Shown piece after piece: positions 34,586 to 35,168 of a stretch of 64,000 nt of DNA (positions are counted from its first letter, which is position 1; every line of letters starts with the position of its first letter). The notes below the pieces were generated by a model. The model searched no databases. It worked only from the letters and a program-made list of their open reading frames with translations, and was not told where the DNA came from. Source of the DNA: Escherichia phage Elenatom; sequence record PP925844.1; one strand, 5' to 3'. Position numbers and translations under genes: made by a program.

Positions 34586-34612
34586 AAAAAGCCCCAACCT
34601 TTCGGCTAGGGC
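34586..34612 (-). terminator. Rho-independent terminator downstream of IP-like gene
   Basis: AGCCCUAGCCgaaaGGUUGGGGCU plus U5 on minus strand. Confidence 0.6.
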
Positions 34613-34620
34613 TAAGAATG

Positions 34621-35094
34621 TTATTTGATTTGTTTAGCAGACCAAATGCGGTCTTTAATAATTTTTTGGATGTCTTCAACATACTCAAGAGAGTGAGCAT
34701 GTGGGTTATCTTTGAAACTATAAGCACGAGCTAGCTTTTGACCTTCAGTTTTGATTACTAAAAGCTCTTTAAGGATAGCTTCATATTTGGAGATAATTCC
34801 TTTAACGATATTTTTCTCTTGTGTAACTTTAGGATCTGCTTTAGGAGCAGGTTTACCCGAAGCCTTTGCAAAAGCAGCGCCAGTAGCAACTAAACTTTTC
34901 CAAGCCATACTAACTGCATTCCCTGTAAATCCTTCGGCTTTCATATCACGAGCAAATTGGAATCGTGATTCATCGGAAGCATCTTTATAGGAATATTTAC
35001 CCGCGGCAATGGCAGCTTTTGCAACAGCTTGAATTTCAGTGCTAGATGCTTCATTTAACACCGCTTCATTTAAAAATTGAGTATATGATTTCAT
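34621..35094 (-). CDS. Internal-protein-like capsid-targeted protein candidate
   Basis: N-terminus MKSYTQFLNEAVLNEA resembles T4 capsid-targeting sequence MKTYQEFIAE with L-x-E cleavage motifs; TATAAATA late promoter upstream; flanked by terminators. Confidence 0.5.
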   Translation of the reverse strand: MKSYTQFLNEAVLNEASSTEIQAVAKAAIAAGKYSYKDASDESRFQFARDMKAEGFTGNAVSMAWKSLVATGAAFAKASGKPAPKADPKVTQEKNIVKGIISKYEAILKELLVIKTEGQKLARAYSFKDNPHAHSLEYVEDIQKIIKDRIWSAKQIK

Positions 35095-35130
35095 CTTATT
35101 TCCTGTTTTAATTCGGGGTTTTAATATACT

Positions 35131-35138
35131 TATTTATA
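35131..35138 (-). promoter_or_regulatory. T4 late promoter (TATAAATA) upstream of IP-like gene
   Basis: Exact motif about 40 nt upstream of ATG at 35094. Confidence 0.6.
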
Positions 35139-35140
35139 CT

Positions 35141-35168
35141 AAAAAGCCCCAACCTTTCGGTCGGGGCT
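35141..35168 (-). terminator. Rho-independent terminator at end of stable-RNA region
   Basis: AGCCCCGACCgaaaGGUUGGGGCU plus U5; near-duplicate of 34586-34612 element. Confidence 0.6.

Follow-up and report, generated by a model that had tools for sequence, protein, structure and literature searches.

A candidate internal head protein gene in a hairpin-flanked, predicted late unit beside the stable RNA genes of T4-like phages

What is the small gene that many T4-like phages carry between their stable RNA genes and gene e.8, and how does it come to be present in some phages and missing from others? We addressed these questions in Escherichia phage Elenatom, using a stretch of 64,000 nucleotides of record PP925844.1 (hereafter, the window), which is that of a Tequatrovirus (T4-like phage) and in which the genes at this locus run on the minus strand. 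The gene, here called ORF157 (open reading frame (ORF) of 157 amino acids (aa); 34621..35094, minus strand), encodes a protein that starts MKSYTQFLNEAVLNEA, belongs to PHROG 2280 and is a homolog of RB32ORF133c and of g140 of phage fD1. Its ratio of nonsynonymous to synonymous substitution (dN/dS) is 0.07-0.2, indicating that ORF157 is a real gene under purifying selection. We consider it probable that ORF157 is a packaged, polymorphic internal head protein of the internal protein (Ip) class of T-even phages, not yet named in databases.

The N-terminus points to this class. In T4 IPIII, the first 10 residues are enough for packaging, also of foreign proteins, with residues 4 and 7 mainly governing targeting and residues 8 and 10 processing, and the prohead protease gp21 cleaves after the Glu of the motif L/I-X-E (PMC9026906). 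Codons 1-15 of ORF157 (35050..35094, minus strand) specify a leader of this capsid-targeting type, MKSYTQFLNE/AVLNE/A, where the slashes mark two L-N-E prohead-protease sites. The targeting residues, which in this class are an aromatic one at position 4 and Phe at position 7, are present as Y4 and F7, as are the processing residues L8 and E10, and both sites, L8-N-E10 and L13-N-E15, fit the L/I-X-E rule and are followed by Ala; the sequence reads AVLNEASSTEIQAVAK from Ala11 and ASSTEIQAVAK from Ala16. A preliminary description of this DNA, made from its letters alone, had called 34621..35094 a capsid-targeting variant with two L-N-E motifs, and the match at these positions bears this out.

A pattern composed of Met1 and the four positions of the capsid targeting sequence (CTS), searched in six frames across the 64 kb, matched twice, once at ORF157 and once at 38125, in an Ip gene that PHROG labels 'internal virion protein' and that is IpVI in phage PST, against 0.11 matches expected; only 2 of 300 simulations gave two. 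There are three leader-bearing genes in the window (38202-38459, 37892-38125 and ORF157), as the preliminary description had it when it counted ORF157 as the third. Targeting residues 4 and 7 are both in register in 10 of the 13 tabulated family leaders and shifted by one residue in two more, and the leaders of distant members recovered by profile search read MLKFNEFLAE, MINFSDFLNE and MKSFSSFLNE. Leader and body remain joined whether the member comes from Tequatrovirus, Dhakavirus, Jiaodavirus or Tegunavirus or from a more distant contig, with the four functional positions conserved in the protein despite strong DNA divergence (synonymous divergence, dS, up to about 2).

The rest of the protein also resembles an internal protein in its composition. 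The predicted mature form has a mass of 15.5-16 kDa, an isoelectric point (pI) of 9.5-9.6, 20 Lys and 4 Arg; its pI of about 9.5 compares with 9.56 for IPII* and 9.65 for IPIII*, all three being Lys-rich and basic. The leader is followed by a conserved domain of ~55 residues (AGKYSYKD...RFQFARDMKAEGF...AWKSL), then by a Lys/Pro/Ala-rich linker and a C-terminal helical hairpin, which is of two types across the family. An AlphaFold model of ORF157 is all-helical, with a predicted local distance difference test score (pLDDT) of 75.6. An exhaustive profile search of 1.84 billion representative proteins yielded 13 cluster representatives of the family, and those whose genomic origin was checked come from T4-like phage genomes or contigs only, so that other genomes offered no helpful context. 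One protein, P0013 (94 aa, on a 2.9-kb Logan contig), is a chimera of a trna.3-like N-terminal part (window 37250-37648) and the last 32 residues of ORF157; either some phage has lost the entire tRNA/rnaC region by deletion or the contig was misassembled.

Protein data come from phage fD1, whose g140 is identical to ORF157 at 156 of 157 residues and was called particle-associated at the strict threshold in liquid chromatography-tandem mass spectrometry of purified virions (PMC8309999). The two other leader-bearing genes, g129 and g146, received the same strict call (PMC8309999). These data prove that g140 is expressed and are compatible with its packaging. Virion proteomics had been proposed in the preliminary description as a check, and the homolog is indeed listed in the particle, though in a list that is unselective, as considered below.

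How would such a gene be expressed? A T4-type late promoter motif, TATAAATA, is found in exact form at 35131-35138 (minus strand), where it abuts the T-run of a terminator hairpin and lies 36 nt upstream of the ATG, close to the about 40 nt first estimated. The 5' leader that follows (35095..35130, minus strand) contains a ribosome-binding site (RBS), AGGAAA, about 7 nt before the ATG, and this AGGAAA is invariant in the alignment of relatives. We rejected the count of the motif as a sign of significance, as there are 13 in the AT-rich window vs 10.5 expected, and gave weight only to placement and conservation. Eight of the 13 sites, ORF157's included, lie 13-36 nt upstream of an ORF start. 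The well-placed sites include two before the lysozyme gene e as well as those before genes 4 and 53, all three genes having been recognised through T4 synteny and N-terminal sequence rather than by search. In T4, e, 4 and 53 are late genes.

The position of TATAAATA is kept in five of six diverged relatives (the sixth has AATAAATA) and in Klebsiella phage KpV477, and the motif, its distance to the T-run and the AGGAAA are all conserved where coding dS is 1-2. No sigma-70-like site was found in the 124-nt leader of ORF157 or on the minus strand across 35095-35170, where TATAAATA is the sole promoter-like element. We predict from this arrangement that ORF157 is transcribed late from TATAAATA. 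The layout of a self-contained late cassette, which the preliminary description had proposed, is thus what is seen: a terminator abutting TATAAATA, then the RBS, with no sigma-70-like site, an order kept as far as the Klebsiella Jiaodavirus. In KpV477 the terminator abuts AGTATAAATA, but the hairpin sequence is different and the downstream terminator is unrelated to it.

The unit is bracketed by two hairpins. The upstream one (35141..35169, minus strand; -19.4 kcal/mol), which is the core of repeat copy 1, reads AGCCCCGACC-GAAA-GGTTGGGGCT followed by TTTTT, and the downstream one (34586..34614, minus strand; -17.4 kcal/mol), in repeat copy 2, reads AGCCCTAGCC-GAAA-GGTTGGGGCT followed by TTTTT. 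Both have a 10-pair G+C-rich stem, a GAAA loop and a T5 tail, and they are the top two terminator-like sites on the minus strand. They are identical at 26 of 29 positions, and no pair of this kind arose in 100 shuffles, in keeping with the near-identical flanking terminators first described. The full repeat measures 36 nt (35136-35171 and 34581-34616), with 32 of 36 positions identical by manual count and the copies spaced 555 bp apart.

All three differences between the hairpin copies preserve pairing (C-G to U-G, G-U to A-U and A-U to G-U), leaving all nine pairs intact. Among Tequatrovirus genomes, the 5' arm variants GCCCCGACC, GCCCCAGCC, GCCCTAGCC and GCCCTGACC each form nine of nine pairs with a constant 3' arm through A-U/G-U swaps, the hairpin of the JS98 group shows a compensatory C-G to G-C change, and the two copies co-vary within genomes. 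Judged by these substitution patterns, the hairpin is under structural selection, and transcription is predicted to terminate at both copies. In T4, a sequence identical to the upstream hairpin is the sole copy and lies directly 3' of rnaC. The preliminary description is to be qualified here in two respects: the upstream hairpin is simply the rnaC terminator, which closes the tRNA/rnaD/rnaC transcription unit, and the flanking repeat is already in the GenBank record of RB32, where RB32ORF133c (155 of 157 residues identical to ORF157) is 'flanked by 34 bp imperfect direct repeat'.

We then asked how the site between rnaC and e.8 is occupied in relatives, using sampled rows of BLAST tables for all occupancy figures. 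At this locus, vB_EcoM_ESCO58 and ECML-123-2 are the best-matching phages (98% identity). Read in the direction of transcription and compared with annotated T4, the order in the window is 11 tRNAs, a 116-aa ORF, the rnaD-like and rnaC-like RNAs, hairpin 1, TATAAATA with ORF157, hairpin 2, the early-promoter leader of e.8, and e.8. The flanks are conserved, with 88-100% identity among relatives in rnaC and e.8. On the left is the rnaC-like stable RNA (35219..35357, minus strand), a homolog of T4 species 1 RNA; on the right is the e.8 leader region (34423..34585, minus strand), which has its own early-type promoter, TTTACA-17-TACTAT with TG (34451-34423). In T4 the same flanks meet at a single hairpin copy (...GCCGCAACGGTTAGCCCCGACCGAAAGGTTGGGGCTTTTTGGTATCTAAG...), so that the window equals the T4 arrangement plus one 555-bp unit comprising late promoter, ORF and second hairpin.

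Four states were found. The empty state, with one hairpin copy and no gene, is seen in T4, RB6, SV76, BF15 and PST. ORF157 alone is present in the window, RB32, fD1 and most others. ORF157 is accompanied by a second cassette, encoding a 187-aa protein that starts MKTYAEFLTEAAK (ORF187), in D5505, ZN18 and fPS-65; and the 187-aa gene stands alone in RB14, HY03, CT01 and ESh24 and, frameshifted, in the RB69 record. ORF157 is accordingly missing in T4, PST, RB6, RB14 and HY03. Phage records with an ORF157-family gene number 511, and those with the 187-aa gene 165. The comparison across T4-like genomes that the preliminary description had called for therefore finds a variable locus rather than an invariant one, and its suggestion of a cassette movable between the repeated terminators is supported by T4, PST and RB6, which keep one hairpin copy and no gene.

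The junctions are informative about how these states arise. The T-run is followed by (A/G)GTATAAATA before ORF157, by AGTTTGAATCAC before ORF187 and by GGTATCTAGG before the e.8 leader; n ORF157-type units come with n+1 hairpin copies, and the ORF187 unit is closed by another hairpin (CCCTATC...GATAGGG) with the same GGGCTTTTTGGTATCT junction. An alternative account denies the hairpins a part in gain and loss: a terminator is needed by every late unit in any case, and occupancy would differ through exchange via the flanks, rnaC and e.8, during co-infection. The high identity of these flanks and the free recombination of T-even phages would favour such exchange, as would the different hairpin at the end of the ORF187 cassette and the presence of the gene in KpV477 and other distant members whose downstream terminator is unrelated to the upstream one. 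However, the junctions of T4, the window, D5505 and HY03 fall exactly at the repeat, with the n+1 rule holding for ORF157-type units, the hairpin copies co-vary within genomes, and the same topology was experimentally shown to recombine in promoter-early stem-loop (PeSL) cassettes (PMC2839356). We regard exchange through the flanks as the sole route as possible but doubtful; such exchange is, moreover, compatible with a repeat mechanism, as it would spread alleles made by repeat recombination.

The direction of change can also be addressed. The position just 3' of the tRNA/stable-RNA cluster is held by the family in Dhakavirus (JS98 and relatives), in Jiaodavirus (KpV477) and in two more distant T4-like contigs, and a further homolog of ORF157 is present in the Tegunavirus fHe-Yen9-01. 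We rejected the cassette as a recent insertion, since this cross-genus synteny points to ancestral presence and to loss in T4-like lineages. Because the same position is occupied in five or more genera, the presence of the family at this site is probably ancestral, and the empty T4-type site would be best explained by deletion between the direct repeats, which appears likelier than insertion elsewhere.

Other occupants of the site were also observed. In RB69 (L022, 9429-9991) a frameshift divides the ORF187-type gene in two (ORF148c/149c), and in KpV477 (L015, 3495-4030) an in-frame TAA interrupts the ORF157-family gene; both are either pseudogenes or sequencing errors. In the JS98 group (L009, L010, L011 and L012), a 184-aa predicted membrane protein (MKLLKYLSWILLVPLDF...), which is JS98 orf136 and similar to RB43 ORF080w, lies between hairpin copies and has no targeting leader, indicating that the site also takes cargo other than Ips.

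The arrangement invites comparison with the PeSL cassettes of T4-type phages (Arbiol et al. 2010, PMC2839356; Comeau et al. 2014, PMC4122927). As in those cassettes, a small gene in a hyperplastic region is bracketed by two copies of a terminator-like stem-loop motif and carries its own expression signals, a gene-less relative keeps one copy of the motif, and motif-to-motif homologous recombination is the proposed mechanism. Unlike them, the ORF157 unit has a late promoter of the TATAAATA type and so lacks the defining PeSL feature, a sigma-70-like early promoter; its repeat is a hairpin with a few flanking bases (36 nt) rather than a promoter-plus-stem-loop unit of ~100 bp; and its predicted cargo is a protein targeted to the head, where theirs is an anonymous ORFan. 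On this anatomy, the ORF157 unit appears to work like a PeSL cassette, as a late-promoter version of it. It also resembles the morons of lambdoid phages, in which one accessory gene, equipped with a promoter and a terminator of its own, is inserted between two genes. Lambdoid morons, which are usually expressed from the prophage, are not thought to be mobile through their regulatory sequences. The ORF157 unit differs from them in belonging to a virulent phage, in its predicted late expression and in being flanked by repeats.

Compared with IPI-III of T4 and the polymorphic Ip4-Ip9+ of T-even phages, ORF157 has the same key CTS residues and the L/I-X-E site (PMC3012670, PMC9026906, PMC12373910). 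Its predicted mature product is likewise small, basic and richer in Lys than in Arg, the gene is non-essential and present or absent among close relatives, Ip bodies are mutually unrelated, and Ip genes, too, are flanked by direct repeats, the RB32 annotation giving a '43 bp direct repeat' around Ip7/Ip9. In contrast to those Ips, the body of ORF157 is unrelated to IPI-IV, with no detectable similarity; the gene lies at a third site, rnaC-e.8, and not at ipI or e/denV; it has a late promoter only, behind a strong terminator, where theirs have early promoter/stem-loop units; and it has a 15-residue leader with two cleavage sites and a wider conservation across genera. The class features are present at the level of sequence, the protein being otherwise known from the particle listing of its fD1 homolog, whose N-terminus was not reported.

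RB32ORF133c, fD1 g140 and e112_137 (PHROG 2280) are one and the same protein as ORF157 (99% identity) and occupy its site, and their records say 'hypothetical' with no mention of a targeting leader, a late promoter or the Ip class. ORF157 is labelled hypothetical in all sources, and PHROG 2280 has no assigned function. None of the sources gives it an Ip name, although the primary Ip catalogue (Repoila et al. 1994) was outside our coverage and specialists may already count ORF157 among the Ips. We found no mention in papers of RB32ORF133c, RB69ORF148c/149c or RB14ncORF136c, and ORF157 is not among the sequences in the supplements of the 2025 accessory-gene screen (PMC12373910).

The other Ip genes of this phage were located as well. 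At the ipI locus (37834-38532, minus strand), repeated units, each an early promoter with an embedded stem-loop (TTTCACAAAGTTGTTTACAT...GTGATACTATTACC...), lie between the genes at 38202-38459 and 37892-38125; they also flank T4 ipI and form a classic PeSL-type layout. The denV gene lies ~60 bp from lysozyme gene e (29704-30674, minus strand), and T4 ipII and ipIII, which normally stand between the two, are absent; the Ip set of this phage would therefore consist of an IpV-like protein, an IpVI-like protein and ORF157. A strict exclusion between ORF157 and other Ips of the e/denV site was considered and rejected, as fD1 has both.

From the anatomy, conservation, presence/absence polymorphism and purifying selection observed at this locus, together with the expression of the fD1 homolog, we infer the following course of late transcription, targeting, cleavage and injection, and the target. 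The late transcription apparatus would start at TATAAATA and produce a monocistronic messenger RNA of ~540 nt ending at the downstream hairpin, with the upstream hairpin insulating the unit from tRNA/rnaC transcripts and the downstream hairpin protecting the early-promoter-driven e.8. The N-terminal capsid targeting sequence would bring the 157-aa precursor into the scaffolding core of the prohead, where a gp21-type prohead protease would cut the leader off after Glu10 and/or Glu15. The basic, Lys-rich mature protein (~15.5 kDa) would stay with the packaged DNA and enter the host with it, and may there neutralise a host defence acting on incoming modified DNA, for example a GmrSD-type type IV restriction enzyme. 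Homologous recombination between the 36-nt repeats, or between the hairpin, promoter and leader sequences shared by cassettes, would delete, add or swap cargo at rnaC-e.8, which would add this site to ipI and e/denV as a third hot spot for Ips.

The three T4 proteins Ip1, Ip2 and Ip3 are inhibitors of GmrSD-type type IV restriction enzymes, each directed at its own enzyme, and the same is expected of further Ips (PMC12373910), which makes anti-restriction our leading hypothesis for mature ORF157. ORF157 resembles Ip1-3 in neither sequence nor fold. Drawn as it is by analogy, a specific anti-defence role receives roughly half the weight that we give to membership of the packaged Ip class.

Several observations weigh against assigning ORF157 to this class. 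The known Ip genes of the ipI locus differ from it in regulatory layout, with an early promoter and an embedded stem-loop; indeed, T4 ipI, ipII and ipIII and the IpV and IpVI homologs of the window all have repeated PeSL-type units of early promoter and stem-loop upstream and leaders without TATAAATA. The structural model matched only its own family in PDB and BFVD, with no informative fold neighbour, and there was no match in Pfam or PADLOC and none by sequence in PDB. One family leader carries an FLMTE variant (L005) without a canonical L/I-X-E site, and the conservation of the family and its purifying selection exceed what would be expected of an inhibitor in an arms race. Finally, of the 277 phage proteins of fD1, 113 are in its particle list (DenV, lysozyme and NudE among them), along with 672 host proteins (PMC8309999), and for this reason it is weak evidence for a location inside the head.

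The main alternative to anti-restriction is a bulk DNA-packing role, in which ORF157 is packaged as a basic, DNA-associated filler that serves condensation, head assembly or ejection in place of IPII and IPIII and is not a defence inhibitor. The absence of ipII and ipIII between denV and e fits this role, as do the pI and Lys bias that the mature product shares with IPII* and IPIII*, the broad conservation of the family and its low dN/dS. Furthermore, Lys residues of internal proteins contact DNA phosphates (PMC3012670), and T4 IPIII mutants show slower head assembly and smaller bursts (PMC9026906). Yet T4, PST and RB6 thrive without ORF157, fD1 and others carry it alongside other Ips, so that it is no strict substitute, and IPII and IPIII are themselves specific GmrSD inhibitors (PMC12373910), which means that 'basic filler' and 'inhibitor' are not exclusive. 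We judge a purely bulk role to be unlikely. It is more improbable still that ORF157 stays in the cytoplasm as a late accessory protein, outside the capsid, and that its likeness to a CTS reflects a promoter/RBS/first-codon module travelling as one block, since, even though near-identical hairpin-promoter-RBS-leader DNA is found on different bodies (so that the leader similarity could partly be hitch-hiking), clearly non-structural proteins are in the fD1 particle list and no source annotates ORF157 as an Ip, the four functional leader positions are conserved in the protein despite dS up to about 2, all three leader-bearing proteins of fD1 are particle-associated, and the first 10 residues of IPIII alone package foreign proteins (PMC9026906), from which a late-made protein with this leader would be expected to be packaged.

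With ORF157 as a probable packaged Ip, the modularity of its leader deserves attention. A vB_EcoM_005-like phage (L010), which has an ORF157-type body, and JS98, which has orf135 (205 aa), share near-identical DNA from the hairpin through TATAAATA and the RBS to codon 15, and this similarity ends abruptly after Glu15-Ala16, the predicted second cleavage site. We rejected JS98 orf135 (ORF205) as an unrelated body, as its C-terminal part shows a weak relationship to the C-terminal domain of the Klebsiella type; by this sequence relationship it is better described as a domain-shuffled distant relative of the ORF157 family. The two-site, 15-residue leader is also found on two further unrelated bodies. 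In its extended form (...E[SA][IV]LNE[AE]), the leader was observed on four different bodies (L006, 7277-7558; the ipI-locus genes of L008-L012; L009/L011, 3257-3874), and the Ip5-type body has an IPI-type leader in the window and the two-site leader in phage ZN18. Leaders and bodies thus assort independently.

Based on these findings, we tentatively raise a broader possibility, which at present we hold to be rather less than probable, that the Tevenvirinae have a third hot spot for injected proteins, as yet unrecognised, at the 3' end of the tRNA/stable-RNA cluster, that it is served by a portable adaptor of ~110 bp, and that the ORF157 family with its two C-terminal domain types, ORF187 and JS98 orf135 are new specific inhibitors of host defences directed at modified DNA. 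The adaptor would consist of the terminator hairpin, the late promoter, the RBS and a targeting/cleavage leader of 10-15 codons. It would recombine through the hairpin at its upstream edge and through the protease cleavage site at its downstream edge, and its cargo would be expressed late, packaged, trimmed and injected.

The surroundings of the locus showed further differences from T4. The rnaD-like stable RNA (about 35364-35477, minus strand), a homolog of T4 species 2, and the rnaC-like RNA are each about 95% identical to their T4 counterparts, with the coordinates of both placed by eye using the T4 annotation. A scan with Rfam gathering thresholds gave tRNAs only, with no match for the rnaC- and rnaD-like RNAs or the hairpins, and these RNAs therefore seem to be without an Rfam family. 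The 116-aa ORF (35476-35826, minus strand; PHROG 3355) lies between tRNA-Arg and the rnaD-like RNA and is apparently the counterpart of RB69ORF150c, judged by position and size only; since tRNA-Arg directly abuts rnaD in T4, it is another small insertion inside the stable-RNA unit. The 11 tRNA genes (35845-36862, minus strand) are those for Arg, His, Asn, Tyr, Met, Thr, Ser, Pro, Gly, Leu and Gln, and the homing endonuclease gene segB is absent from this region, compared with eight tRNAs and segB in T4. On the other side, a 132-aa ORF (33662-34060, minus strand; PHROG 8232) stands where T4 has e.7 and looks like RB32 ORF130c ('replaces e.7') and JS98 orf133, again by position and size only. 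Partial copies of the e.8 early-promoter leader at 19728-19793 and 18273-18332 (80-83% over 60-66 nt) are probably further members of a conserved early-promoter motif family.

The Ip class and the principle of shuffling are both established already, and the gain is incremental in this sense; what is new is modest, namely an unnamed Ip family, a third Ip site and an adaptor with its downstream boundary at a protease site. ORF157 is nevertheless present in about 500 sequenced phages, many of them therapy candidates, in all of which it is annotated as hypothetical. In light of the 2025 finding on Ips and GmrSD, further leader-bearing proteins are concrete counter-defence candidates for which an assay is ready (PMC12373910), and ORF157, ORF187 and JS98 orf135 offer three testable, probable injected proteins as well as a third locus to mine. 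The module of hairpin, late promoter and leader would also be a compact natural design for loading foreign proteins into T4-type heads. If the broader possibility raised above is true, the arms race between Ip1-3 and GmrSD enzymes would extend to 'hypothetical' proteins in more than 500 phage genomes.

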